From NCBI RefSeq assembly GCF_044647545.1, contig NZ_CP172818.1: DNA of 64,000 nucleotides, one strand, 5' to 3'. Positions 18,006 through 63,532 of the stretch are shown here, in pieces; the stretch's first letter is position 1, and every line of letters starts with the position of its first letter. This DNA is from Escherichia coli (GTDB taxonomy: Bacteria > Pseudomonadota > Gammaproteobacteria > Enterobacterales > Enterobacteriaceae). The notes under the pieces were generated by a model. That model saw only the letters and a program-made list of their open reading frames with translations. It did not search any database and was not told the DNA's origin. A program made the translations under genes and the position numbers.

Positions 18006-18124
18006 AATCTGGGGTTTGGCATCAGAAAAAAAAAGCTGGTGGCCTGTGCAGGCAGCACTAAGCTCAATAAAAAAGCGCACATCCCTGTTCTGATGTTCAA
18101 TTCCCTGAATTCCTTACTGAAAAA

Positions 18125-18595
18125 CTACTCTTCTTCCACCGCTAACTGCGCGAAGCCGCCGTTCCCTTCCCAGCCTTCCAGACGTTGATAAACGGTTTCC
18201 ACCGCATCTTTAATCGGCTGGGTCATCGGGTAGTAAAAGCCGACGATATCCGGCTGGATGCCGAGGAAAATCACTTCGCCAATGTCTTCTTTCAACTGGT
18301 CGATAAGGTAGTTCAGCGGCATGTTATGGGTAGTCATCATAAACATCTCGGCGATATCATCCGGGTCGATGATGCGGATTTCGCCGGGGTTTAGCCCCAT
18401 ATCCGTGGCGTCAACAATCAGCAGTCGTGTAGGGCGCAGTTCACGGATAGCGACGATGTCGTTTTCCGGTGCGCTACCGCCGTCAATCACCACCCAGTTA
18501 CCTTTCGGTGCGGCGGCGCACTTTTCCGCCAGCAGCGGACCTGCGCCATCATCGCCCATCATGCTATTGCCAACACAGAGTAAAACGTCAGTCAC
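18125..18595 (-). CDS. hycI: hydrogenase 3 large-subunit maturation endopeptidase
   Basis: 156 aa [26 protein letters not shown], HybD/HycI protease family. Confidence 0.9.
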   Translation of the reverse strand: MTDVLLCVGNSMMGDDGAGPLLAEKCAAAPKGNWVVIDGGSAPENDIVAIRELRPTRLLIVDATDMGLNPGEIRIIDPDDIAEMFMMTTHNMPLNYLIDQLKEDIGEVIFLGIQPDIVGFYYPMTQPIKDAVETVYQRLEGWEGNGGFAQLAVEEE

Positions 18596-25987: not shown

Positions 25988-26023
25988 TGTCAGGTTACCC
26001 GTTTAACAGAGATGCCAGCTTTA

Positions 26024-26039
26024 AGCATTTTTTATGCCA
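26024..26039 (-). promoter_or_regulatory. sigma54 -24/-12 promoter of hyc operon
   Basis: minus-strand TGGCAT-aaaaa-ATGCT about 40 bp upstream of hycA start. Confidence 0.6.
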
Positions 26040-26094
26040 ACTTTTAATTCATTGTTATTAAAACGATTTTTAAGCTAAAGATGAATTTCGTCGC

Positions 26095-26127
26095 CGTGTC
26101 GACGTGTCATTTCGACATCATCGACAT
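26095..26127. promoter_or_regulatory. gtgtcgacgtgtcatttcgacatcatcgaca: shared FhlA UAS candidate for divergent hyc and hyp promoters
   Basis: same TGTCATTTCGACA-type motif as 25421-25475 and 13753-13780. Confidence 0.55.
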
Positions 26128-26152
26128 TATTCACCGCAGGGATAATCAACAC

Positions 26153-26168
26153 TGGCACAATTATTGCT
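26153..26168 (+). promoter_or_regulatory. sigma54 -24/-12 promoter of hyp operon
   Basis: TGGCAC-aatta-TTGCT 31 bp upstream of hypA ATG. Confidence 0.7.
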
Positions 26169-26198
26169 TGTAGCTGGCAATAGTTAATGGGAGGCGAT

Positions 26199-26549
26199 AT
26201 GCACGAAATAACCCTCTGCCAACGGGCACTGGAATTGATCGAACAGCAGGCCGCAAAACACGGCGCAAAACGCGTAACTGGGGTCTGGCTCAAAATTGGC
26301 GCATTTTCTTGTGTCGAAACCAGCTCTCTTGCCTTTTGTTTTGATCTGGTTTGCCGCGGCAGCGTGGCGGAAGGTTGTAAACTGCACCTCGAAGAACAAG
26401 AGGCCGAATGCTGGTGTGAAACATGCCAACAGTATGTGACGCTACTGACCCAGCGCGTCCGCCGCTGTCCACAGTGTCATGGCGACATGCTACAAATTGT
26501 GGCAGACGACGGTTTACAGATTCGGCGGATAGAAATAGACCAGGAGTGA
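26199..26549 (+). CDS. hypA: hydrogenase nickel incorporation protein HypA
   Basis: ORF trimmed to MHEITLCQRALELIEQ; C-terminal zinc motif CxxC-x12-CxxC. Confidence 0.9.
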   Translation: MHEITLCQRALELIEQQAAKHGAKRVTGVWLKIGAFSCVETSSLAFCFDLVCRGSVAEGCKLHLEEQEAECWCETCQQYVTLLTQRVRRCPQCHGDMLQIVADDGLQIRRIEIDQE

Positions 26550-26552
26550 GCG

Positions 26553-27425
26553 ATGTGTACAACATGCGGTTGCGGTGAAGGCAACCTGTATATCGAGGGT
26601 GATGAACATAACCCTCATTCCGCGTTTCGTAGCGCGCCATTTGCCCCGGCGGCACGCCCGAAGATGAAAATCACCGGCATTAAAACGCCTGAATTTACCC
26701 CCAGCCAGACTGAAGAAGGCGACCTGCATTACGGTCATGGCGAAGCGGGCACTCACGCGCCGGGCATGAGCCAGCGTCGGATGCTGGAAGTCGAAATTGA
26801 CGTGCTGGACAAAAATAACCGTCTGGCTGAACGCAACCGCGCGCGCTTTGCTGCCCGCAAGCAACTGGTGCTCAACCTGGTTTCCAGCCCTGGTTCCGGT
26901 AAAACCACCCTGCTGACGGAAACCTTAATGCGCCTGAAAGACAGCGTTCCGTGCGCGGTTATTGAAGGCGATCAGCAAACCGTGAACGATGCCGCACGCA
27001 TTCGTGCTACCGGCACACCAGCGATTCAGGTGAATACCGGTAAAGGCTGCCATCTCGACGCTCAGATGATTGCCGACGCCGCACCGCGCCTGCCACTGGA
27101 CGATAACGGTATTCTGTTTATCGAAAACGTTGGCAACCTGGTATGCCCGGCCAGCTTCGATCTCGGTGAAAAACACAAAGTGGCGGTGCTTTCCGTTACC
27201 GAAGGTGAAGACAAACCGCTGAAATATCCGCACATGTTTGCCGCCGCCTCGCTGATGCTGCTCAACAAAGTTGACTTGCTGCCGTATCTCAATTTCGACG
27301 TTGAGAAGTGCATCGCCTGCGCCCGTGAAGTCAATCCAGAAATTGAAATCATCCTTATTTCCGCCACCAGCGGCGAAGGGATGGACCAGTGGCTGAACTG
27401 GCTGGAGACACAGCGATGTGCATAG
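26553..27425 (+). CDS. hypB: hydrogenase nickel-binding GTPase HypB
   Basis: 290 aa ORF; N-terminal [10 protein letters not shown] metal site, P-loop GSGKTTL. Confidence 0.9.
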
Positions 27426-27688
27426 GCGTTCCCGGCCAGATCCGCACCATTGACGGCAACCAGGCGAAAGTCGACGTCTGCGGCATTCAGCGCGATGTCG
27501 ATTTAACGTTAGTCGGCAGCTACGATGAAAACGGTCAGCCACGCGTAGGCCAGTGGGTACTGGTTCACGTTGGCTTTGCCATGAGCGTAATTAATGAAGC
27601 CGAAGCGCGCGACACTCTCGACGCCTTACAAAACATGTTTGACGTTGAGCCGGATGTCGGTGCGCTGTTGTATGGCGAGGAAAAATAA
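27416..27688 (+). CDS. hypC: hydrogenase maturation chaperone HypC
   Basis: ORF trimmed to [15 protein letters not shown] (conserved N-terminal Cys2); 90 aa. Confidence 0.88.
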
Positions 27689-28809
27689 TGCGTTTTGTTG
27701 ATGAATATCGCGCGCCGGAACAGGTGATGCAGTTAATTGAGCATCTGCGCGAACGTGCTTCACATCTCTCTTACACCGCCGAACGCCCTCTGCGGATTAT
27801 GGAAGTGTGTGGCGGTCATACCCACGCCATTTTTAAATTCGGCCTCGACCAGTTGCTGCCGGAAAACGTTGAGTTTATCCACGGTCCCGGTTGCCCGGTG
27901 TGTGTACTGCCGATGGGTAGAATCGACACCTGCGTGGAGATTGCCAGCCATCCGGAAGTCATCTTCTGTACCTTTGGCGACGCCATGCGCGTACCAGGGA
28001 AACAGGGTTCGCTGTTACAGGCAAAAGCGCGCGGTGCCGATGTGCGCATCGTTTACTCGCCGATGGATGCGTTGAAACTGGCGCAGGAGAATCCAACCCG
28101 CAAAGTGGTGTTCTTCGGCTTAGGTTTTGAAACCACCATGCCGACCACCGCCATCACTCTGCAACAGGCAAAAGCCCGCGATGTGCAGAATTTTTACTTC
28201 TTCTGCCAGCACATTACGCTCATCCCAACACTGCGCAGTTTGCTGGAACAGCCGGATAACGGTATCGACGCGTTCCTCGCGCCCGGCCACGTCAGTATGG
28301 TGATTGGCACTGATGCCTATAATTTTATCGCCAGCGATTTTCATCGTCCGCTGGTGGTGGCTGGTTTCGAACCGCTTGATCTACTGCAAGGCGTGGTCAT
28401 GCTGGTGGAGCAGAAAATAGCGGCCCACAGCAAGGTAGAGAATCAGTATCGTCGGGTGGTGCCGGATGCCGGTAACCTGCTGGCGCAACAGGCGATTGCC
28501 GATGTGTTCTGTGTCAACGGCGACAGCGAATGGCGCGGCTTAGGCGTGATTGAATCTTCTGGTGTACACCTGACGCCGGATTATCAACGATTCGATGCCG
28601 AAGCGCATTTCCGCCCGGCACCGCAGCAGGTCTGCGATGACCCGCGCGCACGTTGTGGAGAAGTATTAACGGGCAAATGTAAGCCGCATCAATGCCCGCT
28701 GTTTGGTAACACCTGTAATCCTCAAACCGCGTTTGGTGCGCTGATGGTTTCCTCCGAAGGAGCGTGCGCCGCGTGGTATCAGTATCGTCAGCAGGAGAGT
28801 GAAGCGTGA
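27688..28809 (+). CDS. hypD: hydrogenase maturation Fe-S protein HypD
   Basis: 373 aa ORF with CGxH, GPGCPVC and C-terminal CxxC-x-CPxxGxC motifs. Confidence 0.9.
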   Translation: MRFVDEYRAPEQVMQLIEHLRERASHLSYTAERPLRIMEVCGGHTHAIFKFGLDQLLPENVEFIHGPGCPVCVLPMGRIDTCVEIASHPEVIFCTFGDAMRVPGKQGSLLQAKARGADVRIVYSPMDALKLAQENPTRKVVFFGLGFETTMPTTAITLQQAKARDVQNFYFFCQHITLIPTLRSLLEQPDNGIDAFLAPGHVSMVIGTDAYNFIASDFHRPLVVAGFEPLDLLQGVVMLVEQKIAAHSKVENQYRRVVPDAGNLLAQQAIADVFCVNGDSEWRGLGVIESSGVHLTPDYQRFDAEAHFRPAPQQVCDDPRARCGEVLTGKCKPHQCPLFGNTCNPQTAFGALMVSSEGACAAWYQYRQQESEA

Positions 28810-29816
28810 ATAATATCCAACTCGCCCACGGTAGCGGCGGCCAGGCGATGCAGCAATTAATCAACAGCCTGTTTATGGAAGCCTTTGCCAACCCATGGCT
28901 GGCAGAGCAGGAAGATCAGGCCCGTCTTGATCTGGCGCAGCTGGTAGCGGAAGGCGACCGTCTGGCGTTCTCCACCGACAGCTACGTCATCGACCCGCTG
29001 TTCTTTCCTGGTGGCAATATCGGCAAGTTGGCGATTTGCGGCACCGCGAACGACGTAGCGGTCAGTGGCGCTATTCCGCGTTATCTCTCCTGTGGATTTA
29101 TCCTTGAAGAAGGATTACCGATGGAGACGCTGAAAGCCGTTGTGACCAGCATGGCAGAAACCGCCCGCGCGGCAGGCATTGCCATCGTTACTGGCGACAC
29201 TAAAGTGGTGCAGCGCGGCGCGGCAGATAAACTGTTTATCAACACCGCTGGTATGGGCGCAATTCCGGCGAATATTCACTGGGGCGCACAGACGCTAACC
29301 GCAGGCGATGTATTGCTGGTTAGCGGTACACTCGGCGACCACGGGGCGACTATCCTTAACCTGCGTGAGCAGCTGGGGCTGGATGGCGAACTGGTCAGCG
29401 ACTGTGCGGTACTAACGCCGCTTATTCAGACGCTGCGTGACATTCCCTGCGTGAAAGCGCTGCGTGATGCCACCCGTGGTGGTGTAAACGCGGTGGTACA
29501 TGAGTTCGCGGAAGCCTGCGGTTGTGGTATTGAAATTTCAGAAGCGGCACTGCCGGTTAAACCTGCTGTGCGCGGCGTTTGCGAACTGCTGGGACTGGAC
29601 GCCCTTAACTTTGCCAACGAAGGCAAACTGGTGATCGCCGTTGAACGCAACGCGGCAGAGCAAGTGCTGGCAGCGTTACATTCCCATCCACTGGGAAAAG
29701 ACGCGGCGCTGATTGGTGAAGTGGTGGAACGTAAAGGTGTTCGTCTTGCCGGTCTATATGGCGTGAAACGAACCCTCGATTTACCACACGCCGAACCGCT
29801 TCCGCGTATATGCTAA
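28806..29816 (+). CDS. hypE: hydrogenase maturation carbamoyl dehydratase HypE
   Basis: 336 aa ORF, PurM-like fold, C-terminal PRIC. Confidence 0.9.
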   Translation: MNNIQLAHGSGGQAMQQLINSLFMEAFANPWLAEQEDQARLDLAQLVAEGDRLAFSTDSYVIDPLFFPGGNIGKLAICGTANDVAVSGAIPRYLSCGFILEEGLPMETLKAVVTSMAETARAAGIAIVTGDTKVVQRGAADKLFINTAGMGAIPANIHWGAQTLTAGDVLLVSGTLGDHGATILNLREQLGLDGELVSDCAVLTPLIQTLRDIPCVKALRDATRGGVNAVVHEFAEACGCGIEISEAALPVKPAVRGVCELLGLDALNFANEGKLVIAVERNAAEQVLAALHSHPLGKDAALIGEVVERKGVRLAGLYGVKRTLDLPHAEPLPRIC

Positions 29817-29889
29817 TAAAATTCTAAATCTCCTATAGTTAGTCAATGACCTTTTGCACCGCTTTGCGGTGCTTTCCTGGAAGAACAAA

Positions 29890-31968
29890 ATGTCATATAC
29901 ACCGATGAGTGATCTCGGACAACAAGGGTTGTTCGACATCACTCGGACACTATTGCAGCAGCCCGATCTGGCCTCGCTGTGTGAGGCTCTTTCGCAACTG
30001 GTAAAGCGTTCTGCGCTCGCCGACAACGCGGCTATTGTGTTGTGGCAAGCGCAGACTCAACGTGCGTCTTATTACGCGTCGCGTGAAAAAGACACCCCCA
30101 TTAAATATGAAGACGAAACTGTTCTGGCACACGGTCCGGTACGCAGCATTTTGTCGCGCCCTGATACGCTGCATTGCAGTTACGAAGAATTTTGTGAAAC
30201 CTGGCCGCAGCTGGCCGCAGGTGGGCTATACCCCAAATTTGGTCACTATTGCCTGATGCCACTGGCGGCGGAAGGGCATATTTTTGGTGGCTGTGAATTT
30301 ATTCGTTATGACGATCGCCCGTGGAGTGAAAAAGAGTTCAATCGCCTGCAAACATTTACGCAGATCGTTTCTGTCGTCACCGAACAAATCCAGAGCCGCG
30401 TCGTTAACAATGTCGACTATGAGTTGTTATGCCGGGAACGCGATAACTTCCGCATCCTGGTCGCCATCACCAACGCGGTGCTTTCCCGCCTGGATATGGA
30501 CGAACTGGTCAGCGAAGTCGCCAAAGAAATCCATTACTATTTCGACATTGACGATATCAGCATTGTCTTACGCAGCCACCGTAAAAACAAACTCAACATC
30601 TACTCCACTCACTATCTTGATAAACAGCATCCCGCCCACGAACAGAGCGAAGTCGATGAAGCCGGAACCCTCACCGAACGCGTCTTCAAAAGTAAAGAGA
30701 TGCTGTTGATTAATCTCCACGAGCGGGACGATTTAGCCCCCTATGAACGCATGTTGTTCGACACCTGGGGCAACCAGATTCAAACCTTGTGCCTGTTACC
30801 GCTGATGTCTGGCGACACCATGCTGGGCGTGCTGAAACTGGCGCAATGCGAAGAGAAAGTATTTACCACTACCAATCTGAGCTTACTGCGCCAGATTGCC
30901 GAACGTGTGGCAATCGCTGTCGATAACGCCCTCGCCTATCAGGAAATTCATCGTCTGAAAGAACGGCTGGTTGATGAAAACCTCGCCCTGACCGAGCAGC
31001 TCAACAATGTTGATAGTGAATTTGGCGAGATTATTGGCCGCAGCGAAGCCATGTACAGCGTACTTAAACAAGTTGAAATGGTGGCGCAAAGTGACAGTAC
31101 CGTGCTGATCCTCGGTGAAACTGGTACAGGTAAAGAGCTGATTGCCCGCGCGATCCATAATCTCAGTGGGCGTAATAATCGCCGCATGGTCAAAATGAAC
31201 TGCGCGGCGATGCCTGCCGGATTGCTGGAGAGCGATCTATTTGGTCATGAGCGTGGGGCTTTTACCGGTGCCAGCGCTCAGCGCATTGGTCGTTTTGAAC
31301 TGGCGGATAAAAGCTCACTATTCCTCGATGAAGTGGGCGATATGCCGCTGGAGTTACAGCCGAAGTTGCTGCGTGTATTACAGGAACAGGAGTTTGAACG
31401 TCTTGGCAGCAACAAAATCATTCAGACGGACGTACGTTTAATTGCCGCGACTAACCGCGATCTGAAAAAAATGGTCGCAGACCGAGAGTTCCGTAGCGAT
31501 CTCTATTACCGCCTGAACGTATTCCCGATCCACCTGCCGCCACTACGCGAGCGTCCGGAAGATATTCCGCTGCTGGCGAAAGCCTTTACCTTCAAAATTG
31601 CCCGTCGTCTGGGGCGCAATATCGACAGCATTCCTGCCGAGACGCTGCGCATCCTGAGCAACATGGAATGGCCGTGCAACGTGCGTGAGCTGGAAAACGT
31701 CATTGAGCGCGCGGTATTGCTAACACGCGGCAACGTGCTGCAGCTGTCATTGCCAGATATTGCTTTACCAGAACCTGAAACGCCGCCTGCCGCAACGGTT
31801 GTCGCCCAGGAGGGCGAAGATGAATATCAGTTGATTGTTCGCGTGCTGAAAGAAACCAACGGCGTGGTTGCCGGGCCTAAAGGCGCTGCGCAACGTCTGG
31901 GGCTGAAACGCACGACTCTGCTGTCACGGATGAAGCGACTGGGAATTGATAAATCGGCATTGATTTAA
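29890..31968 (+). CDS. fhlA: formate hydrogenlyase sigma54-dependent transcriptional activator
   Basis: ORF 29854..31968 trimmed to MSYTPMSDLGQQGLF; two GAF domains, AAA+ with GETGTGKE and GAFTGA, C-terminal HTH. Confidence 0.92.
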   Translation: MSYTPMSDLGQQGLFDITRTLLQQPDLASLCEALSQLVKRSALADNAAIVLWQAQTQRASYYASREKDTPIKYEDETVLAHGPVRSILSRPDTLHCSYEEFCETWPQLAAGGLYPKFGHYCLMPLAAEGHIFGGCEFIRYDDRPWSEKEFNRLQTFTQIVSVVTEQIQSRVVNNVDYELLCRERDNFRILVAITNAVLSRLDMDELVSEVAKEIHYYFDIDDISIVLRSHRKNKLNIYSTHYLDKQHPAHEQSEVDEAGTLTERVFKSKEMLLINLHERDDLAPYERMLFDTWGNQIQTLCLLPLMSGDTMLGVLKLAQCEEKVFTTTNLSLLRQIAERVAIAVDNALAYQEIHRLKERLVDENLALTEQLNNVDSEFGEIIGRSEAMYSVLKQVEMVAQSDSTVLILGETGTGKELIARAIHNLSGRNNRRMVKMNCAAMPAGLLESDLFGHERGAFTGASAQRIGRFELADKSSLFLDEVGDMPLELQPKLLRVLQEQEFERLGSNKIIQTDVRLIAATNRDLKKMVADREFRSDLYYRLNVFPIHLPPLRERPEDIPLLAKAFTFKIARRLGRNIDSIPAETLRILSNMEWPCNVRELENVIERAVLLTRGNVLQLSLPDIALPEPETPPAATVVAQEGEDEYQLIVRVLKETNGVVAGPKGAAQRLGLKRTTLLSRMKRLGIDKSALI

Positions 31969-32011
31969 CAGATGTGTTATACTCGATCAACATTCAATGA
32001 AAGGAGGCAGT

Positions 32012-32059
32012 ATGGCAGTTTCAGCAAGAAATCAATTAACCGGAACAGTTACGCAGTAG
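32012..32059 (+). pseudogene. 15-codon ORF with molbindin (Mop/TOBE)-like N-terminus MAVSARNQLTGTVTQ behind a strong RBS; truncated
   Basis: aaggagg 6 nt upstream of ATG; MxxSARNxLxGxV is the typical start of Mop domains; in-frame TAG after 15 codons. Confidence 0.35.
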
Positions 32060-32139
32060 CAATGGGCGCTTGAATGATGAAGTAGAACCGACGCCGCAGG
32101 TGTGCAAAACTTGCAATTGTTACACACAGCAGCCAGCAG

Positions 32140-32390
32140 GCTCTTGGCCGGGAAAAAGGAAAAAAAGGCGCCCCCCCGAAAAAGCCCCCGGGGGGAAACG
32201 CGGAAAAGAAAAGCGGGGGGGAAACTCCCCCCCCCCACCCGCTGCGCGGCGCGCGGGCAAACACCCGCGAAGGGCGGGGGGAGCCCCCTCCAAAAAAAAA
32301 AAGGGGGGGTTTTAAAATGGGGGGGAAAAAAAAAAAAAAGGAAGGAAAAAAAAACCCCCTAAAAAAAAAACACCAAAAAGGAAAAATTTG
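32140..32390. repeat. low-complexity block dominated by homopolymer runs (A up to 14, C up to 10, G up to 7)
   Basis: read directly; composition atypical for E. coli chromosome; resembles degraded base-calls. Confidence 0.8.
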
Positions 32391-32412
32391 CCGGAGAGTA
32401 TGGCTCTCCGGC
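32390..32412 (-). terminator. intrinsic terminator candidate for ygbA
   Basis: gccggagag-tatgg-ctctccggc hairpin 5 nt after ygbA stop, followed on the minus strand by a T-rich tract. Confidence 0.55.
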
Positions 32413-32416
32413 AGAT

Positions 32417-32761
32417 TTATTTCTTTGGACGATATTTTTCTGGCAACTCCGGCACCGGACGCTTGTCATCGATGAGATGACGCACGGTTAAGATCGGATG
32501 ACGCCACAGCATTCGCGGCCCGGCCCAACGCATAATCTGTTTCATCTCTTCACGCTTTGCTGGCTGGTAACAGTGCACCGGACACTGCTTACAGGCTGGT
32601 TTCTCTTCGCCGAACACACATTTATCCAGCCGCTTTTGCGCGTAGGCAAACAGCGCGTCGTAATGCTCCGGCTCCGCTGACGCCTGCGGGCATTTCGCTT
32701 GATAAAGATCGATCATTTTTTTAATCGTCAGTTTTTCACGAGAGATACGCTTGCCGGACAT
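32417..32761 (-). CDS. ygbA: Cys-rich small protein YgbA (nitrous oxide-stimulated promoter family)
   Basis: 114 aa ORF with CxxxC...CxxC...CxxCxxHC cysteine pattern. Confidence 0.85.
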   Translation of the reverse strand: MSGKRISREKLTIKKMIDLYQAKCPQASAEPEHYDALFAYAQKRLDKCVFGEEKPACKQCPVHCYQPAKREEMKQIMRWAGPRMLWRHPILTVRHLIDDKRPVPELPEKYRPKK

Positions 32762-33047
32762 GCTGCCTCCATACTCTTAAGGTGTATTTATATTACAACT
32801 TAATTTGAAAGGGGACTATGGCTCTGAAGGAGGAGGTTTATTCAACCGACGCAATTTTGCGTACTTGCTTCATAAGCATCACGCAAAAGCTGCAAAACAG
32901 CATCTTTCCCGGAATCACCATCAAGAACTCGCCGTTCGCTTCTTCCCCTGAAATGATTAACTCCGGTATCATGTGCGCCTTATGTGATAACAACGAAAAT
33001 AAAAACCATCACACCCCATTTAATATCAGGGAACCGGACATAACCCC

Positions 33048-35609
33048 ATGAGTGCAATAGAAAATTTCGATGCCCATACGCCCATGATGCAGCAGTATCT
33101 CAAGCTGAAAGCCCAGCATCCCGAGATCCTGCTGTTTTACCGGATGGGCGACTTTTATGAACTGTTTTATGACGACGCAAAACGGGCGTCGCAACTGCTG
33201 GATATTTCACTGACCAAACGCGGTGCTTCAGCGGGAGAGCCAATCCCGATGGCGGGGATTCCCTACCATGCGGTGGAAAACTACCTCGCCAAACTGGTGA
33301 ACCAGGGCGAATCGGTTGCTATTTGTGAACAGATTGGCGATCCGGCGACCAGCAAAGGGCCGGTCGAGCGCAAAGTTGTCCGTATCGTTACGCCGGGCAC
33401 CATCAGCGATGAAGCGCTGTTGCAGGAACGTCAGGACAACCTGCTGGCGGCTATCTGGCAGGACAGTAAAGGTTTCGGCTACGCAACGCTGGATATCAGT
33501 TCCGGTCGTTTTCGCCTGAGCGAACCGGCGGACCGCGAAACGATGGCGGCAGAACTGCAACGTACGAATCCAGCGGAATTACTGTATGCGGAAGATTTCG
33601 CCGAGATGTCGCTGATTGAAGGTCGCCGCGGCCTGCGTCGTCGCCCGCTGTGGGAGTTTGAAATCGACACCGCGCGCCAGCAGTTAAACTTGCAATTTGG
33701 CACTCGCGATCTGGTCGGTTTTGGCGTCGAGAACGCGCCGCGCGGACTTTGTGCCGCCGGTTGTCTGTTGCAATATGCGAAAGATACCCAACGCACGACC
33801 CTGCCGCATATTCGTTCTATCACTATGGAACGTGAGCAGGACAGCATCATTATGGATGCCGCGACGCGTCGTAACCTGGAAATCACCCAGAATCTGGCGG
33901 GTGGTGCGGAAAATACGCTGGCTTCTGTGCTCGACTGCACCGTCACGCCGATGGGCAGCCGTATGCTGAAACGCTGGCTGCATATGCCAGTGCGCGATAC
34001 CCGCGTCTTGCTTGAGCGCCAGCAAACTATTGGCGCATTGCAGGATTTCACCGCCGAGCTGCAGCCGGTACTGCGTCAGGTCGGCGACCTGGAACGTATT
34101 CTGGCGCGTCTGGCTTTACGAACCGCTCGCCCACGCGATCTGGCCCGTATGCGTCACGCTTTCCAGCAACTGCCGGAGCTGCGTGCACTATTAGAAAATG
34201 TCGAAAGCGCACCGGTACAGGCGCTGCGTGAGAAGATGGGCGAGTTTGCCGAACTGCGCGATCTGCTGGAGCGGGCCATTATCGACACACCGCCGGTACT
34301 GGTGCGCGACGGTGGTGTTATCGCGCCGGGCTATAACGAAGAGCTGGATGAGTGGCGGGCGCTGGCTGACGGCGCGACCGATTATCTGGAGCGTCTGGAA
34401 ATCCGCGAGCGTGAACGTACCGGCCTGGACACGCTGAAAGTCGGCTTTAACGCGGTTCATGGTTATTACATTCAGATCAGCCGTGGACAAAGCCATCTGG
34501 CACCCATCAACTATATGCGTCGCCAGACGCTGAAAAACGCCGAACGCTACATTATTCCAGAGCTAAAAGAGTATGAAGACAAAGTACTCACCTCGAAAGG
34601 TAAAGCACTGGCACTGGAAAAACAGCTTTATGAAGAGTTGTTCGACCTGCTGTTGCCGCATCTGGAAGCGTTGCAACAGAGCGCGAGCGCGCTGGCGGAA
34701 CTCGACGTGCTGGTGAACCTGGCGGAACGGGCCTATACCCTGAACTACACCTGCCCGACCTTTATTGATAAACCTGGCATTCGCATTACCGAAGGCCGCC
34801 ATCCAGTGGTTGAACAGGTACTGAACGAACCGTTTATCGCTAACCCGCTAAACCTGTCGCCACAGCGCCGCATGTTGATCATTACCGGTCCGAACATGGG
34901 CGGTAAAAGTACCTATATGCGCCAGACCGCGTTGATTGCGCTGATGGCGTATATCGGCAGCTACGTACCGGCGCAAAAAGTCGAGATTGGCCCGATCGAC
35001 CGTATCTTTACCCGCGTAGGCGCGGCAGACGATCTGGCATCCGGGCGTTCAACCTTTATGGTGGAGATGACCGAAACCGCCAATATTTTACATAACGCCA
35101 CCGAATATAGTCTGGTGTTGATGGATGAGATCGGGCGTGGAACGTCCACTTACGATGGTCTGTCGCTGGCGTGGGCATGCGCGGAAAATCTGGCAAATAA
35201 GATCAAAGCGTTGACGCTGTTTGCTACCCACTATTTCGAGCTGACCCAGTTACCGGAGAAAATGGAAGGCGTCGCCAACGTGCATCTCGATGCGCTGGAG
35301 CACGGCGACACCATTGCCTTTATGCACAGCGTGCAGGATGGCGCGGCGAGCAAAAGCTACGGCCTGGCGGTTGCAGCTCTGGCAGGCGTGCCAAAAGAGG
35401 TTATTAAGCGCGCACGGCAAAAACTGCGTGAGCTGGAAAGCATTTCGCCGAACGCCGCCGCTACACAGGTTGATGGTACGCAGATGTCCCTGCTTTCTGC
35501 GCCAGAAGAAACGTCGCCTGCGGTCGAGGCACTGGAAAACCTCGACCCGGATTCACTGACTCCGCGTCAGGCGCTGGAGTGGATTTATCGGTTGAAGAGT
35601 CTGGTGTAA
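33048..35609 (+). CDS. mutS: DNA mismatch repair protein MutS
   Basis: 853 aa ORF; N-terminal mismatch-binding GDFYELF, Walker [10 protein letters not shown]. Confidence 0.95.
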
Positions 35610-35615
35610 TAACAA

Positions 35616-35642
35616 TTCCCGATAGTCTTTTGCTATCGGGAA
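35616..35642 (+). terminator. 10-bp stem hairpin after mutS (ttcccgatag-tcttttg-ctatcgggaa)
   Basis: read in sequence 7 nt after mutS stop; no strong U-run. Confidence 0.45.
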
Positions 35643-35714
35643 TATTAACGACAACTGACGAATCAAATAAAAATACCCTGTATAATAGGAAATCTTATTT
35701 TACAGGGTAAAACC

Positions 35715-36371
35715 ATGCCATCTACACGCTATCAAAAAATTAATGCCCATCACTATCGTTATATATGGGCCGTTGGTGATATTCATGGTGACTATCAATT
35801 ATTACAATCCCGCTTACATCAACTCTCTTTTTGCCCTGAAACCGACTTACTTATTTCCACAGGCGATAATATTGATCGTGGGCCGAAGAGTCTTAACGTG
35901 CTGCACCTGCTAAACCAACCCTGGTTTACGTCGGTTAAAGGCAACCACGAAGCGATGGCGTTGGATGCATTCGAAACTGGCGATGGAAATATGTGGCTTG
36001 CCAGCGGTGGTGACTGGTTTTTCGATTTAAATGATTCAGAGCAACAAGCGGCAATAGATCTGTTGCTGAAATTCCATCACCTTCCACATATTATTGAAGT
36101 TACTAACGACAACACAAAATATGTCATCACACATGCAGATTATCCGGGGAATGAATATCTCTTTGGTAAAGAAATAGCGGAGAGCGAATTACTCTGGCCT
36201 GTTGATCGTGTGCAGAAATCGCTTAATGGCGAGTTACAACAAATAAACGGCGCTGATTATTTTATATTTGGACATATGGTGTTTGATAACATTCAGACGT
36301 TCGCAAACCAGATTTATATTGATACCGGATCGCCGAAAAGCGGGCGGCTGTCATTTTATAAAATAAAGTAG
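35715..36371 (+). CDS. pphB: serine/threonine protein phosphatase 2 (calcineurin-like metallophosphatase)
   Basis: 218 aa ORF with GDIHGD and GDNIDRGP metallophosphatase motifs. Confidence 0.9.
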   Translation: MPSTRYQKINAHHYRYIWAVGDIHGDYQLLQSRLHQLSFCPETDLLISTGDNIDRGPKSLNVLHLLNQPWFTSVKGNHEAMALDAFETGDGNMWLASGGDWFFDLNDSEQQAAIDLLLKFHHLPHIIEVTNDNTKYVITHADYPGNEYLFGKEIAESELLWPVDRVQKSLNGELQQINGADYFIFGHMVFDNIQTFANQIYIDTGSPKSGRLSFYKIK

Positions 36372-36372
36372 T

Positions 36373-36398
36373 CTCATGCTTCTTCTGTGAAGCATGAG
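36373..36398. terminator. 10-bp perfect hairpin (ctcatgcttc-ttctgt-gaagcatgag) between convergent pphB and ygbI
   Basis: read in sequence 2 nt after pphB stop. Confidence 0.5.
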
Positions 36399-36399
36399 T

Positions 36400-37150
36400 A
36401 ACCGAGATGTTCTGCAGGCCCCTACTCATTTTTCGCTACCAGCAAAGAGAGATCCTGCTTCGCCAGCACGCAACTGGCGCTCTCCGGCGAAGCCGCATAT
36501 CTAATAATCTGATCAAACTAGTAATGGTAACGCCAGCCATGTCGCCACCTGACCATATTTCGTCGCATCACAGACCAAAACTCGCTGGCGGCTGGCACTG
36601 GCAATCGCCCGTTTCACCGTGACTTTATCTTTCCGCTGGCGTAAATCCCCCGCACACTCCATGACGATGCAGAAATAAAAACCTGATCAATCATCAGGCT
36701 GCGCAGCATGGTCGCAGCGGCTTCCCCGACACAGGAACGGTTTTCCCGACACACTGCACCGCCAGTGTGAATAATTGTGCAATTACTGTTGTCAGCAAGT
36801 AGTTCGCAATAACGAAATCGTTTGTGACCACAGTCAGTGACTCCATGTGAATCAGATGCTGTGCTATCGCTAACGTGGTCGTTCCCGCATCCAGATAGAT
36901 ACAACTTTCCGGCTGAACAGACTTTTGCCGCCAGCTTGCCAATAGCCGCTTTTTGCGTCATTGCCAGCGCAGTTTTACCTAAGTTCGCCATGCGCCACGC
37001 GTCCCGGAGACTGGACGCCTCCGGACACCCAGCACAACGGCTCCCTGCTGCTCCAGTTTTTGTAAATCCCGACGAATGGTCATATGTGACACATTACTCA
37101 TTCTGTCCGTTAGTTCAGCAATACTGACAATGCCTTTTTCAGCTTATCTC
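36400..37150 (-). pseudogene. ygbI: DeoR-family regulator YgbI, reading frame broken in several places
   Basis: minus-strand translation gives DeoR HTH fragment VSHMTIRRDLQKLEQQGAVVLGV and a C-terminal sugar-binding fragment (ORF 36614..36991) in different frames separated by stops. Confidence 0.5.
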
Positions 37151-37382
37151 AAGGATCATCTGGCGACGCTCTACGGGTATCAACTTTTGCTCCTTCCTTT
37201 GTCCTGCTGACATTCTACGCTATTTGCCTGCGAAACGTGCGCGGCGCAACTAACGCTTAGTTCACATAAAATAACACACAATGTTAATTTATGTGAATCA
37301 GCTCACCATATCGTTATCTTCCAGCGCTTATATTCACAATATCAAACAAAATATCACTTAAATTAACCAACAAGGAGAGCAG

Positions 37383-38291
37383 ATGAAAACGGGATCTGAG
37401 TTTCATGTCGGTATCGTTGGCTTAGGGTGAATGGGAATGGGAGCAGCACTGTCATGTGTCACGAGCAGGTCTTTCTACCTGGGGCGCAGACCTGAACAGC
37501 AATGCCTGCGCTACGTTGAAAGAGGCAGGTGCTTGCGGGGTTGCTTGATAACGCCGCGACGTTTGCCGAAAAACTGGACATTATGCTGGTGCTGGTGGTA
37601 AATGCGGCCCAGGTTAAACAGGTGCTGTTTGGTGAAACGGCGTTTGCACAACATCTGAAACCCGGTACGGCAGTAATGGTTTCTTCCACTATCGCTAGTG
37701 CTGATCGCGCAAGAAATTGCTACCGCTCTGGCTGGATTCGATCTGGAAATGCTGGATGCGCCAGTTTCTGGTGGTGCAGTAAAAGCCGCTAACGGTGAAA
37801 TGACTGTCATGGCCTCCGGTAGCGATATTGCCTTTGAACGACTGGCACCCGTGCTGGAAGCCGTTGCCGGAAAAGTTTATCGCATAGGTGCAGAACCGGG
37901 ACTAAAGAGTTCGACCATTAAAGTTCTTCACCAGTTAGCGGGCGTACATATTGCTGCCGGAGCCGAAGCGATGGCACTTGCAGCCCGTGGGATCCCGCTG
38001 GATGTGATGTATGACGTCGTGACCAATGCCGCCGGAAATTCCTGGATGTTCGAAAACCAGATACGTCATGTGGTGGATGGCGATTACACCCCGCATTCAG
38101 CCGTCGATATTTTTGTTAAGGATCTTGGTCTGGTTGCCGATACAGCCAAAGCCCTGCACTTCCCGCTGCCATTGGCCTCAACAGCATTGAATATGTTCAC
38201 CAGCGCCAGTAACGCGGGTTACGGGAAAGAAGACGATAGCGCAGTTATCAAGATTTTCTCTGGCATCACTCTACCGGGAGCGAAATCATGA
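37383..38291 (+). pseudogene. ygbJ: 3-hydroxyisobutyrate dehydrogenase-family enzyme YgbJ (putative L-threonate dehydrogenase) with premature stop and compensating frameshifts
   Basis: ATG 37383 then GIVGLG Rossmann start, TGA at codon 16 (37428); middle segment readable in frame of ORF 37529..37792 and C-terminal 197 aa in ORF 37698..38291; total span 909 nt equals an intact 302-aa gene. Confidence 0.55.
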
Positions 38292-39454
38292 TCAAGATTG
38301 GCGTTATCGCCGATGATTTTACCGGCGCGACGGATATCGCCAGTTTTCTGGTGGAAAACGGTCTACCAACGGTACAAATTAACGGTGTTCCAACAGGTAA
38401 AATGCCGGAAGCAATCGACGCACTGGTGATCAGCCTGAAAACGCGCTCCTGTCCAGTGGTTGAAGCCACACAGCAATCGCTGGCGGCTCTGAGCTGGTTG
38501 CAACAGCAAGGTTGCAAACAGATCTATTTCAAATACTGCTCTACTTTCGACAGTACGGCGAAAGGTAATATTGGCCCGGTTACCGATGCCTTAATGGATG
38601 CTCTCGACACGCCGTTTACGGTCTTCTCTCCGGCCCTGCCGGTCAACGGACGTACGGTTTATCAGGGGTATTTGTTCGTAATGAATCAACTGCTGGCCGA
38701 ATCCGGGATGCGCCATCACCCGGTAAATCCCATGACCGACAGCTATCTTCCCCGTCTGGTTGAAGCGCAATCCACAGGGCGCTGCGGCGTCGTTTCGGCA
38801 CATGTTTTCGAACAAGGTGTGGATGCCGTTCGTCAAGAGCTGGCTCGCTTACAGCAAGAGGGCTACCGCTACGCGGTGCTTGATGCGCTGACCGAACACC
38901 ATCTGGAAATTCAGGGAGAAGCCTTGCGCGATGCCCCACTGGTAACGGGCGGTTCTGGTCTGGCGATTGGCCTGGCCCGGCAGTGGGCGCAAGAAAACGG
39001 TAACCAGGCTCGCAAAGCAGGGCGTCCGCTCGCTGGGCGCGGCGTAGTGCTCTCCGGTTCATGCTCTCAAATGACCAACCGCCAGGTAGCACATTACCGT
39101 CAAATTGCACCAGCCCGTGAAGTTGATGTGGCACGCTGCCTCTCAATTGAAACTCTGGCCGCTTATGCACACGAACTGGCAGAGTGGGTTCTGGGCCAGG
39201 AAAGTGTACTTGCTCCACTGGTTTTTGCCACCGCCAGCACTGACGCATTGGCAGCAATTCAACAGCAATACGGTGCACAAAAAGCCAGTCAGGCAGTAGA
39301 AACACTGTTTTCTCAACTAGCGGCGCGGTTAGCAGCGGAAGGCGTGACACGCTTTATTGTCGCAGGCGGTGAGACCTCCGGCGTAGTCACACAGAGCCTG
39401 GGAATAAAAGGGTTTCATATTGGCCCAACCATTTCCCCGGCGTGCCGTGGGTAA
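38288..39454 (+). CDS. ygbK: four-carbon acid sugar kinase family protein YgbK (putative 3-oxo-tetronate kinase)
   Basis: 388 aa ORF MIKIGVIADDFTGATDIASFL (DUF1537 N-terminus); 4-bp overlap with ygbJ stop. Confidence 0.8.
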   Translation: MIKIGVIADDFTGATDIASFLVENGLPTVQINGVPTGKMPEAIDALVISLKTRSCPVVEATQQSLAALSWLQQQGCKQIYFKYCSTFDSTAKGNIGPVTDALMDALDTPFTVFSPALPVNGRTVYQGYLFVMNQLLAESGMRHHPVNPMTDSYLPRLVEAQSTGRCGVVSAHVFEQGVDAVRQELARLQQEGYRYAVLDALTEHHLEIQGEALRDAPLVTGGSGLAIGLARQWAQENGNQARKAGRPLAGRGVVLSGSCSQMTNRQVAHYRQIAPAREVDVARCLSIETLAAYAHELAEWVLGQESVLAPLVFATASTDALAAIQQQYGAQKASQAVETLFSQLAARLAAEGVTRFIVAGGETSGVVTQSLGIKGFHIGPTISPACRG

Positions 39455-42424: not shown

Positions 42425-42457
42425 TAAAAAGGTCCGATGGGCATCGGACCTTTTATT
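42425..42457. terminator. bidirectional intrinsic terminator between ygbN and rpoS
   Basis: aaaa-ggtccgat-gggc-atcggacc-ttttatt: 8-bp GC-rich stem flanked by A-run and T-run. Confidence 0.8.
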
Positions 42458-42511
42458 GTGCACAGAAAAGGCCAGCCTCATAAGAGACTGGCCTTTATGA
42501 CAGATGCTTAC

Positions 42512-53571: not shown

Positions 53572-53652
53572 TGGGTTTGAAAATGGGAGCTGCGAGTTCT
53601 ACCGCAGGGGCGGGGAATTCTAAGTGATATCCATCATCGCATCCAGTGCGCC

Positions 53653-54418
53653 CGGTTTATCCCCGCTGGCGCGGGGAATCGCCGGAAAATATTCATGATG
53701 GGGGTGGTTATGGCGGTTTATCCCCGCTGGCGCGGGGAATCTCGGGGCCGCCGTGTTCACATTTGCCTAATTTCCCGGTTTATCCCCGCTGGCGCGGGGA
53801 ACTCTATCATAAACGAGGTGAATTTATGGAAACTGTACGGTTTATCCCCGCTGGCGCGGGGAACTCGTTAGTTTTCGAAAAAATTGTTTTCTTACGCTGG
53901 TTTATCCCCGCTGGCGCGGGGAACTCAATTATTGTCGTGGACAAATGCCGGTGTTATTGCGGTTTATCCCCGCTGGCGCGGGGAACTCATTCGAGACAAT
54001 CTCTCAAAATTAATGAAATCGGTTTATCCCCGCTGGCGCGGGGAACTCCAGGTATCAAGAAATAATCGAAGCCTTCATGACGGTTTATCCCCGCTGGCGC
54101 GGGGAACTCAATTGATTGCTGGGTGATATTGGAAAATGTTGCGGTTTATCCCCGCTGGCGCGGGGAACTCCTACCGTACAGATCCTGACCGGATATTATT
54201 TTTTTGCGGTTTATCCCCGCTGGCGCGGGGAACTCCGACGTTCGACGAAATGCGCGATGGCGGTCGGCGGTTTATCCCCGCTGGCGCGGGGAACTCTTCT
54301 GCGTCCCCGATGTCTGGCCCGACTGGTCCGGTTTATCCCCGCTGGCGCGGGGAACTCTATATGACCGGAACACTTCCGCCTGACGTTTGCGGTTTATCCC
54401 CGCTGGCGCGGGGAACTC
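53653..54418 (-). CRISPR. type I-E CRISPR array: 13 copies of 29-bp repeat (minus-strand GAGTTCCCCGCGCCAGCGGGGATAAACCG), 12 spacers
   Basis: repeat starts on + strand at 53653, 53714, 53776, 53838, 53898, 53960, 54020, 54081, 54142, 54207, 54268, 54329, 54390; distal repeats degenerate; spacers about 31-33 nt except one of 36 nt. Confidence 0.97.
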
Positions 54419-54523
54419 TCTAAAAGTATACATTTGTTCTTAAAGCATTTTTTCCCATAAAAACAACCCACCAACCTTAATGTAACATTTCCTTATTATT
54501 AAAGATCAGCTAATTCTTTGTTT
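54419..54523 (-). promoter_or_regulatory. AT-rich CRISPR leader between cas2 stop and first repeat
   Basis: 105 bp AT-rich tract adjacent to consensus repeats; the degenerate repeat is at the opposite end. Confidence 0.8.
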
Positions 54524-55727
<1,204 letters not shown>

Positions 55728-55742
55728 TTTATTACACCTAAA

Positions 55743-56342
55743 TCACAGTGGAGCCAAAGATAGCAAGCCACATCCCATCGATTTAGCTGGCCCAATACCT
55801 TGCTGTACAAGATCTATTAACGCTGGCGCGTCGTTGATGGTGATCACCCCTTCAAAGCAAACCGTTTGAATCTTTCCACTTTTACCATCACCAGAAAAAT
55901 ACTGTGGCCGTTCCGATATGGGATGCACATCTTCAACGCGCGCCGCATTGCCCAATTTACGTTGCAACCACGCGATTTGTTCTGCTTCTTTTATTAACGG
56001 AACCCGACAGCGTTTAATATTCCCTTTACTGTCCAGGCGCTTTTGATTGTCGAGAATAGTTTTGATCGGATTTGCCCGAAGCCGAAAATAGAGTGGAACA
56101 CCAACCTGAAGTTGAAATTCAACCTGTTTAGTTTTAATGACTGTCGCAACGGCAGTTGAAACAGGCATTTGCGCTGACTGCAATAAAACATGACAGCCTT
56201 CTGGTGTGTTTCGCTTCTCAACATGAAAAAGAAAATCACGAGCAGCATCCGGTCTGTTTGGAAATAAATGCCATAATCCCTGGTGAAGTTGGTAAAGATC
56301 CCTGCTCCAGGCCCTGGCAATGATGACTTTACTGAGATACAT
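55743..56342 (-). CDS. casE: Cascade pre-crRNA endoribonuclease CasE (Cas6e/Cse3)
   Basis: 199 aa ORF MYLSKVIIARAWSRDLYQLHQGLW. Confidence 0.93.
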   Translation of the reverse strand: MYLSKVIIARAWSRDLYQLHQGLWHLFPNRPDAARDFLFHVEKRNTPEGCHVLLQSAQMPVSTAVATVIKTKQVEFQLQVGVPLYFRLRANPIKTILDNQKRLDSKGNIKRCRVPLIKEAEQIAWLQRKLGNAARVEDVHPISERPQYFSGDGKSGKIQTVCFEGVITINDAPALIDLVQQGIGPAKSMGCGLLSLAPL

Positions 56343-57003
56343 CCATACCTCCTTTAATCACATACCATTCTCGGGAAGCAAATTGTCGAGGTAAGGTGAT
56401 CATCGGTTCGTCGCGCGCCGTAAATTTTAAATAATGCCCTGTAACTGATTCCTCACTATAAATATCGCCGCCAACGGGCTCATAATTTAATAGCGCCTTC
56501 TGAGGATCCGATGCCTTACATGTCCCCAAAAAAAGCGGGTGTGTTAGTGGGCAACTTCTCCGCCCCAGGTAGGGTGTATACCGAGGCTTTAATACTGCTT
56601 TTTCAAGTTCTGAGATAACCATCGTTGCATGGGGTGTTAACCAGAGAGCGACGGTAAAGGAGGCATCACATAAATATTCGCGCCATGTTTGAATCGTTTC
56701 ATGACTTTTCAAACCACGGTAATCTTCTCGCGCTCCAAGGACTGTATGGTAATCACGCAACCCCGTTACAGACACACGACGATCGTCAAGAATGAGTTCA
56801 TCGCAGCGCACTGCAAATTGCACACTCTCTGATAACGCCTGTAATGAAGAAGTATCATCACGTTGGATCCCAAGACAAGCACCGAGTAGCCCTAATAACC
56901 CGCTTCGGGTCGGAAATCTTCCGGTAGGTCGCGTTCCTTCAAAGGTCGGCTGCCCCCAGGCTTGCATTGGCCCAGCAAGCCGCAAGATCAAATAAGATCT
57001 CAT
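56329..57003 (-). CDS. casD: Cascade subunit CasD (Cas5e)
   Basis: ORF trimmed to MRSYLILRLAGPMQAWG; 224 aa. Confidence 0.92.
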   Translation of the reverse strand: MRSYLILRLAGPMQAWGQPTFEGTRPTGRFPTRSGLLGLLGACLGIQRDDTSSLQALSESVQFAVRCDELILDDRRVSVTGLRDYHTVLGAREDYRGLKSHETIQTWREYLCDASFTVALWLTPHATMVISELEKAVLKPRYTPYLGRRSCPLTHPLFLGTCKASDPQKALLNYEPVGGDIYSEESVTGHYLKFTARDEPMITLPRQFASREWYVIKGGMDVSQ

Positions 57004-57005
57004 GT

Positions 57006-58097
57006 TCACGCCTCGCCATTATTACGAACCCAGGATTTTAACTGTTCTAAAGTAGGCATTTGTTTAACTTGAGCAGTAATTGGGTCTACATCAGATAAGC
57101 TGAATTGCGCAGCAGCTCCGTTCAGACCATATCCATTGGCAACGCGATCCCAATATTGATTAAAAGCCTGTATAGACGGTTGCAAAAAGCCATCTTTCGC
57201 TTTAACCGCTTTTTCAAAAGCATTTGCCATAGAAAGTGGCATATCGGAGAAATTAACCATTACCATATCCGCAGGGTTAAAAGCGGCATAAGTACGCTGT
57301 TTTGCTCCAGGGACCTCTGTTGCCAGCATATGAACAACATGGGTTGCAATTTCCAGAGCCTGCTCCCTGGAGGCACCACCTAAATTTTCCTGAAGTTGAG
57401 CGAGGTTAATGTTGGCATAACGATAAAAAACACCCGATGAAAATTCCTGAGTTCCCAGATGTGCAGAACCTTGTTCCTGTAAATCATCTACAGCGGTGAA
57501 CCAGTCAATATCAGAATCAACCTGATGAGTAGTGATCGCATGCGCAATGGACATTGCACCATCAACTTTTCCCAACTCACTCATCATGCCGCTGGTTGCC
57601 ATTCTTCCACTAAGCGCAATATCAACACCCTGCTGTAAATTCACACGTATGGCGGCAATATCTTCCTTAAGAACTTTGAGCAGCTTTTTATCATCCAGAT
57701 TATCAGCCTCTGCTTTTGCAACCTGCTCACAGAACCAGGCTATTTCTCCCACAACCCAGGGAGTAACCGCATCGGCAGAAATCTTTTCGGCTTCATCAAC
57801 TAATTTACCGGAGAGCAGCGCTAATGTCTTATCGATGATTTTTTGGTCAAAACGTTCACCAAGTTTTTGCCGAAGAACATCACGTAATTGTGCAAGATGA
57901 ATTGTTCTGAGACTGGATTCACCAATATTTTGTGCGTAATAATCACTTTTACGCATCGCACGTTTAAGGCTTTGACTTGAAATTCTTACTCGTCTTTTCC
58001 CGCCGAAAATAGCGTCTTTCTGCATGTTCATATCGTCGCGGTTCAGACATGAAGGGCTGTGAGAAATCAGAACATGAATATTGATAAAGTTAGACAT
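57006..58097 (-). CDS. casC: Cascade backbone subunit CasC (Cas7e/Cse4)
   Basis: 363 aa [25 protein letters not shown]. Confidence 0.93.
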
Positions 58098-58109
58098 AGA
58101 AAGGTTTCC

Positions 58110-58592
58110 TTACGCATTTTTGTTTGTGGTCAATACAAAATCTTCCAGAAGTTGCTGGCGTTCGCGCTTTCCCCACCAGGTCAACATCCTGGCCATTAAT
58201 GGCCAGTCAAGTACGGGTTCGGCGTGAGTAAGTAATCGACGTAACTGGACCATATCGGCTGTTCTGTCAGCCCGAATTAATTGAAAGATACGGCGCTCGT
58301 TAATTCTTCCACTATTGGCTAAAGCTCTTCCCAACGAGATACCTGTTGTTTGCTCCGGTTTTTTGTCCTGATGTCGGATGACATTCTTTCCTGCGCTCAG
58401 GCAAAACACCATGCGCAAAAGAGCCTGCTGGTGACGTGGGTTTTCCCAACCAAAAGGTTGCACCAGCCTATAAAACGCAGGGATATCGCGTAATTCATCA
58501 GGTTCTGAAACACGTCTAATTTGCGCACATGCTCCATTATCCAGTTGTTGCCAGGCTCGATATAAAGCCATTGCATCAATTTCATCAGCCAT
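58110..58592 (-). CDS. casB: Cascade small subunit CasB (Cse2)
   Basis: 160 aa ORF MADEIDAMALYRAWQQL. Confidence 0.93.
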   Translation of the reverse strand: MADEIDAMALYRAWQQLDNGACAQIRRVSEPDELRDIPAFYRLVQPFGWENPRHQQALLRMVFCLSAGKNVIRHQDKKPEQTTGISLGRALANSGRINERRIFQLIRADRTADMVQLRRLLTHAEPVLDWPLMARMLTWWGKRERQQLLEDFVLTTNKNA

Positions 58593-60093: not shown

Positions 60094-60507
60094 TTGTTCT
60101 CCTTCATATGCTCCGACATTTCTCCTGCATTTCTATACGTCGGCACACTTCCGTTATCGGTAAAAACAAAGAAAAAATACGGCGTAATTAATTCAATAAT
60201 CACATTCACTGCAAAAATATATTCATTGGTTTAATACAATTAACCTATGCATATATTAAGATGTGTTGAATTGTTTAAAGACAATAATGCATGCATTTCA
60301 AATCTGCAAGTTATTCGTTTTATTATCAAAGAAATTTTTAGTTATAATAATTACCATAAATTTTATTACATAAAATATTCATACTGTGAATATAAAATCT
60401 CATACCGGGAAATTAAAAGAAGATGTACATTGTGCACCTTCCCTACTTAAGTAGGGATAAACCGTTATTGGTCTTGTTATCGTCATTGATACCAATCATT
60501 CCCGAAG
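60094..60507. promoter_or_regulatory. AT-rich casA-cas3 intergenic region; expected site of Pcas promoter and H-NS/LeuO control
   Basis: 414 bp, strongly AT-rich, upstream of casA; contains 16-bp perfect palindrome ccctacttaagtaggg at 60441..60456; regulatory roles are from established K-12 literature, not read from sequence. Confidence 0.6.
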
Positions 60508-63174: not shown

Positions 63175-63532
63175 TAATAGCCTCCCTGTTTTTTTAGTAT
63201 TATCGATGATATCAGTGGACTATTTTTCGATGCTGCTCATAAATATCGAATTACAGTGATATACACATGTCTTGCCTCCCTGCAAAGAAGAGACTAACAT
63301 CCGAATTGCTTAGGTTCGAACGCTGGCCTCAGGTTGATAGAAATATCGCCTGGGGCTTTTGTCCATCTGGTACCTCGCGAATGCTTAATGCCAGACAGCC
63401 TCAAGCACCCAACGCCATTCTATACCTGTTAATTCTTCCAACGACGTTCACGTTTAAAATCAGGAATGCTGCTCGCAAAATAAAAACGCCCCCATCATTT
63501 CTGACAGAGGCGTTTAATTTATCCGGCAATAT

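Follow-up and report, generated by a model that had tools for sequence, protein, structure and literature searches.

The cytoplasmic protein ModG of Azotobacter vinelandii (PDB entries 1H9J, 1H9K and 1H9M) is a stand-alone chain of ~140 amino acids made up of tandem TOBE/Mop domains. With two TOBE domains per chain, ModG trimerises to bind eight molybdates and serves molybdenum homeostasis, and the type-1 site of Tub, with its Ala-Val-Asn backbone, resembles the ModG site (PMC11980592). Single-domain Mop and Tub subunits assemble as hexamers (PMC11980592); those compared here are MopII of Clostridium pasteurianum (1GUG), Mop of Sporomusa ovata (1FR3) and Tub of Eubacterium limosum (9BEB), which are ~70 amino acids long. 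Two TOBE domains in tandem also make up the C-terminal di-Mop part of the Escherichia coli regulator ModE (1B9M, 1O7L, 1H9R).

The window analysed here, a 64-kb stretch of E. coli DNA, contains a gene of this family in the hyp-fhlA-ygbA-mutS region (mutS at 33048–35609), where the gap between fhlA and ygbA measures ~450 nt compared to 36 nt in E. coli K-12 (Table 1). By sequence match, the interval 32012–32385 is this strain's copy of a known and already annotated enterobacterial molbindin gene of the ModG type (di-Mop gene), the intact form of which is a 429-bp CDS encoding a 142-aa protein (RefSeq WP_000301062.1, strain FDAARGOS_497). The FDAARGOS_497 CDS lies between fhlA and ygbA and matches the window DNA in alignment, and a megablast search of 31900–32480 against 5,426 complete genomes showed that many E. 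coli have a gene annotated as 'TOBE domain-containing protein' or 'molybdopterin-binding protein' at this position. WP_000301062.1 contains two PF03459 TOBE domains in Pfam (residues 4–66, E = 1.6e-17, and 76–137, E = 6.2e-16), scores 142 bits on the NCBIfam model TIGR00638 Mop (cut-off 55), and aligns over residues 1–140 with ModG (1H9J) at E = 5e-33. We consider the identity of the gene settled because it is borne out by the match to PDB sequences, by the profiles of Pfam and NCBIfam and by annotation in RefSeq, and the assignment to the Mop/TOBE molbindins made in the original prediction was right. That prediction had envisaged a small single-domain Mop protein of ~70 aa, which was wrong, as every intact orthologue is a 142-aa protein with two TOBE domains. 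The SARN, GAVN and KAP/KAS motifs are kept in both halves of WP_000301062.1 in the alignment with 1H9J; in the window's own copy the first SARN is the only one of these oxyanion-site motifs that can be read.

Table 1. Features at and around the di-Mop gene in the window.
Feature	Positions	Strand	Basis
fhlA, formate hydrogenlyase transcriptional activator, 692 aa	29890..31968	+	ORF; annotated flhA/FhlA in matching RefSeq regions; no indels compared to reference
Start of the graded errors: loss of one G (GTGG to GTG) in the 43-nt fhlA-Mop spacer	31975..31976	+	Alignments, BLAST gaps
Shine-Dalgarno sequence aaggagg, 4 nt 5' of the ATG	32001..32007	+	Sequence; identical in intact alleles
Readable 5' third of the di-Mop gene (codons 1 to ~48), split over three frames	32012..32148	+	tblastn; alignments to reference loci L001 and L002
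Homopolymer 'smear', the other two thirds of the gene, codons ~49–142 and stop	32149..32385	+	Register test, composition
GC-rich hairpin (ATTTGCCGGAGAGTATGGCTCTCCGGCAGAT) followed by a T-rich tail, candidate intrinsic terminator of the Mop gene, abutting the ygbA stop codon	32386..32416	.	L002 6650–6680
ygbA, 114 aa, nitrous-oxide-stimulated-promoter family, convergent, downstream, intact	32417..32761	-	ORF; RefSeq annotation

Like ModG, WP_000301062.1 is a free-standing chain of ~140 aa in which one TOBE domain follows another and no further domain is present, but the two differ in their setting: the E. coli gene follows fhlA in the hyp-fhlA cluster and is not found beside mod genes, whereas modG of Azotobacter adjoins the genes for molybdate transport, and the host of the E. 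coli gene does not fix nitrogen. With ModE the protein shares the two-TOBE architecture, matching residues ~125–260 of the regulator with E ~1e-15, but it is without the N-terminal winged-helix DNA-binding domain. Identity as a ModE-type regulator was considered and rejected: the protein reaches 88 bits where the ModE equivalog NF007957 requires 369, and its alignment is limited to the C-terminal half of ModE, the N-terminal helix-turn-helix being absent, thus it is not ModE and would not bind DNA by that route. The single-domain proteins 1GUG, 1FR3 and 9BEB match each half of the protein (E = 2e-9 to 3e-5) and share with it the TOBE fold family and the N-terminal signature M-x-x-SARNQ, by which the original prediction had identified the family, but the E. 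coli protein is a covalent tandem of two such domains.

The Shine-Dalgarno sequence, start codon and 15-codon reading frame from which the gene was first suspected are all present in the window. The ATG at 32012 opens MAVSARNQLTGTVTQ and the frame ends at a TAG stop at 32057–32059; the ORF list gives the same frame as 31997..32059. The Mop-like fragments claimed for other frames were recovered when the intact orthologue was used as a tblastn query over the whole window, with residues 1–14 found at 32012–32053 in frame 2 (13 of 14 identical), a piece containing NDEVE at 32064–32159 in frame 3, and residues 33–48 (AKL-AIVTHSSQQALG) at 32104–32148 in frame 1 (15 of 16 identical). No match comparable to these fragments was found elsewhere in the 64 kb, and the similarity to the molbindin gene, as measured by sequence comparison, is far beyond chance. 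At the DNA level, the window is nearly identical to intact alleles from 31900 to ~32148 save for a few single-base deletions. Within the legible part of the gene there are single-base and 2–3-base dropouts (near 32051, 32070, 32096, 32102 and 32111–32112) in addition to miscalls in which T has been replaced by a neighbouring base. The extent originally proposed for the gene, 32012–32140, is therefore a good description of its legible first third but not of its end, as the remains reach ~32385 through the homopolymer block.

The gene is common in the species. An intact, single-copy, chromosomal gene is present in 1,890 of the 5,426 complete E. coli genomes (~35%), and an open reading frame at this site is also found in Citrobacter and E. 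albertii, which bears out the expectation that orthologous regions would contain a gene here. Truncated matches, with less than 80% coverage, occur in only two of 1,892 carriers. The identical protein is found on at least 1,000 contigs, and its cluster at 90% identity counts 1,003 members, some of them from Citrobacter species and E. albertii. The gene is absent from 65% of the complete E. coli genomes, K-12 among them, and is thus a presence/absence polymorphism in E. coli. The order hypD-hypE-fhlA-TOBE-ygbA is common to Citrobacter amalonaticus and the contig with the variant named for E. albertii, which suggests that the position after fhlA is ancestral and that strains of the K-12 type have lost the gene. 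In K-12 MG1655, the 36-nt spacer between fhlA and ygbA (L003 518–553) contains a different hairpin (gccggacagatctgcctgtccggc), and ygbA is annotated at 354 bp compared to 345 bp where the di-Mop gene is present.

The differences between the window's copy and the intact alleles are graded from left to right. Global alignment of 31900–32450 with an intact allele gives, for successive blocks of 30 reference nucleotides, error counts of 0, 0, 1, 0, 0, 2, 4, 5, 4, 13, 12, 14, 11, 14, 10, 13, 24, 20, 6 and 0, with 551 nt in the window corresponding to 614 nt in the reference, a difference of 63 nt. Damage begins with the lost G at 31976 and continues with single-base dropouts at ~32051 and ~32070 and losses of one to three bases at 32096–32112, after which the homopolymer runs begin at ~32149. 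From 31976 the errors climb rightwards, reaching 10–24 per 30 nt in the homopolymer block (hereafter the smear), and end abruptly, perfect identity restarting at 32386 with the first base of the terminator hairpin. There are ~200 changes within 370 nt, and both flanks of the damaged interval are 100% identical to intact alleles. Over the flanking kilobases, the closest E. coli matches are at ~96–98%.

The smear itself is the remainder of the same gene, in register, rather than foreign DNA. Its alignment to the missing part of the gene scores 124, compared to 8.1±15.7 for random segments of the window (z = 7.4) and 18.3±11.9 for shuffles of its run order (z = 8.9), and its length is that of the missing remainder minus dropouts, so that nothing has been added. 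In composition it departs from the gene in one direction, the number of T falling from 69 to 16 over 32130–32400 while no A, C or G is read as T. Of 74 miscalls, 62 copy an adjacent true base (34.4±4.1 in permutations, maximum 47). The mean run length is 2.9 in the smear and 1.4 in the true gene, and up to 72% of the bases of the smear lie in runs of four or more, compared to a window mean of 5.8%; no second 100-nt segment with more than 35% of its bases in such runs exists across the 64 kb. None of the 5,426 complete E. coli genomes covers at least 80% of the interval 31900–32480, and an 80-nt string from the smear has no match among 100,044 species-representative genomes.

We propose that the gene is most probably intact in the organism, and that the deposited record most probably owes its frameshifts and homopolymer block here to errors in base calling; judging from the sequence, we put the probability of this reading at about 0.92. 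The pattern of the errors points most probably to a technical origin, which we favour over natural decay because ~200 changes lie between identical flanks, the damage follows a one-way gradient with an abrupt end, and one nucleotide has been replaced by copies of its neighbours. The original prediction had offered corruption by sequence errors as one of two alternatives, and the graded errors, the register with the gene and the loss of T all favour it. The damage could have come from a single read, running from left to right, whose quality collapsed over ~400 nt; isolated G calls would have dropped out first, the T signal would have been lost next with neighbouring peaks bleeding into runs, and the unedited tail would then have been joined to good sequence from 32386 on. 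The features shared with an unedited low-quality read tail are the one-directional, graded dropping and smearing of calls over ~400 nt followed by an abrupt return to perfect sequence, and the loss of one base channel (T) with miscalls that copy neighbours, an assignment drawn from the pattern of the errors. Homopolymer-length error as known from 454, Ion Torrent or nanopore sequencing was considered as the sole cause and rejected, since in such error existing runs change in length, whereas here mixed sequence became runs and one base was lost.

The quality of the record is also uneven elsewhere. A second damaged patch (36380–38300), 4 kb from the smear, spans ygbI (- strand), the ygbI-ltnD spacer and ltnD (+ strand), and shows 94 differences from the best reference, with 34 gap columns in ~20 events. 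These take the form of clustered scrambles and an in-frame TGA between long perfect runs, and break the ygbI and ltnD open reading frames, of which only pieces of 125 and 197 aa are left. The best identity for this patch among 4,587 E. coli genomes is 96.0%. The other ~55 kb of the window contain ~8 small indel events relative to the same reference genome, and there are no indels relative to the reference in 26000–31950 or 32400–36500. The damage in ygbI and ltnD probably represents further base-call errors, with real pseudogenes as the alternative, and such patchy quality in the record supports a technical origin for the damage in the di-Mop gene.

Among the competing explanations, the one that survives best is that at least one of the early deletions (31976, ~32051 or ~32070) is real, so that the gene is truly inactivated and only the smear is technical. 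These deletions sit in otherwise perfect sequence, and each is the loss of a single G, which could well be a natural event. However, they form the foot of a smooth rise in errors that leads into the smear, the first of them lies in the spacer outside the coding sequence, the neighbouring 6 kb on the left and 4 kb on the right are entirely free of indels, and dropped isolated G calls would suit the same process of signal loss. We therefore consider a real early deletion improbable.

It is less probable again that the strain's DNA truly carries all of the frameshifts together with the degenerate block, and that the molbindin gene has decayed as a genuine pseudogene. The gene is evidently dispensable, given its absence from 65% of complete genomes including K-12, and the apparent disruption of nearby ygbI and ltnD is what one might expect of a pseudogene-rich lineage. 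However, neutral decay cannot produce ~200 changes over 370 nt when the sequence on either side is 100% identical to intact alleles, nor does it account for a gradient of damage that runs one way and ends abruptly, or for a one-way loss of T with miscalls that copy neighbouring bases. The spectrum of the lesions is not that of natural mutation and is out of proportion to the divergence of the flanks, and we know of no natural mutational process that would combine one-way T loss with neighbour-copying miscalls. In addition, the block occurs in no other genome among the 5,426 E. coli and 100,044 species representatives, and natural disruption of the gene is rare (two of 1,892 carriers). The description of the locus as decayed, the other alternative of the original prediction, thus finds no support in the error gradient, the register test or the miscall pattern, and very little probability attaches to it.

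Slighter still is the chance that the block is real DNA in which some localised process turned ~240 nt into T-depleted runs while keeping the order of the remaining bases; this would imply an unknown kind of targeted hypermutation or a repair scar. Finally, the legible Mop-like part does stop where the runs start, as it would if a separate entity (a phase-variable tract, an insertion or low-complexity filler) had truncated a single-domain Mop gene of ~70 aa, but this is refuted by the register of the block with codons ~49–142 of a two-domain gene, far above controls, by its length, which equals the missing remainder less dropouts, and by the two-domain, 142-aa form of all intact orthologues. 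Nor was the block found as an independent element in the other genomes searched.

With base-calling error as the preferred explanation, the main value of the locus is for quality control. At least two patches of the record (31975–32385 and ~36400–38000) are of low quality and will give false frameshifts in any annotation. It would be wrong to enter the interval containing the di-Mop gene as a pseudogene or a new small open reading frame, or to treat the homopolymer block as a separate feature.

As to the intact gene, its locus showed neither a sigma-70-like promoter site nor a terminator in the spacer that separates it from fhlA, and the hairpin that follows the gene is predicted to be a strong terminator (-25.4 kcal/mol, z = -4.25 in RNA folding). 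The simplest reading of this arrangement is that the gene is probably co-transcribed with fhlA. A candidate ModE operator in the 43-nt spacer (GTTATAC...AACAT) was rejected, as it fits the ModE operator pattern, TATAT-N7-TAYAT, poorly by eye.

By homology to ModG and to Mop/Tub, the intact protein would be cytoplasmic and would bind, buffer or store molybdate, and possibly tungstate, at the interfaces between TOBE domains or subunits; molybdate binding is thus predicted from its relatives. Its role may nevertheless differ from that of Azotobacter ModG, because the gene adjoins fhlA and not a mod transport operon. Formate dehydrogenase-H is a molybdoenzyme and needs molybdenum, and expression of hyc reportedly depends on molybdate through ModE, which fits the place of the gene after fhlA. 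Given its probable co-transcription with fhlA, the molbindin could provide formate dehydrogenase-H and the formate hydrogenlyase regulon with molybdate, or sense it for them, a link that is plausible on the grounds of homology and gene order. No paper or experiment on this E. coli gene or protein was found in the literature searched by neighbours and names, which yielded general background on molbindins. That a metal-buffering protein encoded next to a metal-dependent regulon should be present in some strains and absent from others poses a small and tractable question, if an unsurprising one.

The window also differs from the collinear region of strain SCU-172 at several places. A segment of ~9.6 kb (53616–63265) has no BLAST match to that region, so that its genes must be divergent or of another set; in SCU-172 the corresponding interval, between cysH and iap, carries cas3-casABCDE-cas1-cas2 (type I-E). 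Between ygbN and rpoS (42457–42466), in the variable mutS-rpoS region, the window is without a ~2.9-kb segment of SCU-172 that encodes a MarR-family regulator and hydroxyarylic acid decarboxylase subunits B, C and D. Between hycI and ascB (18026–18032) it is without ~700 bp present in SCU-172 as a 'frameshifted hypothetical protein' (L005 7974–8729), and there are small indels nearby at 18074–18127. Lastly, hypE (28750–29500) and the stretch from the 3' end of mutS through pphB (34750–36500) show, relative to the best-matching genome, 13–28 substitutions per 250 nt compared to 0–8 elsewhere, with no indels, and these clusters look like recombination mosaicism rather than sequencing error.
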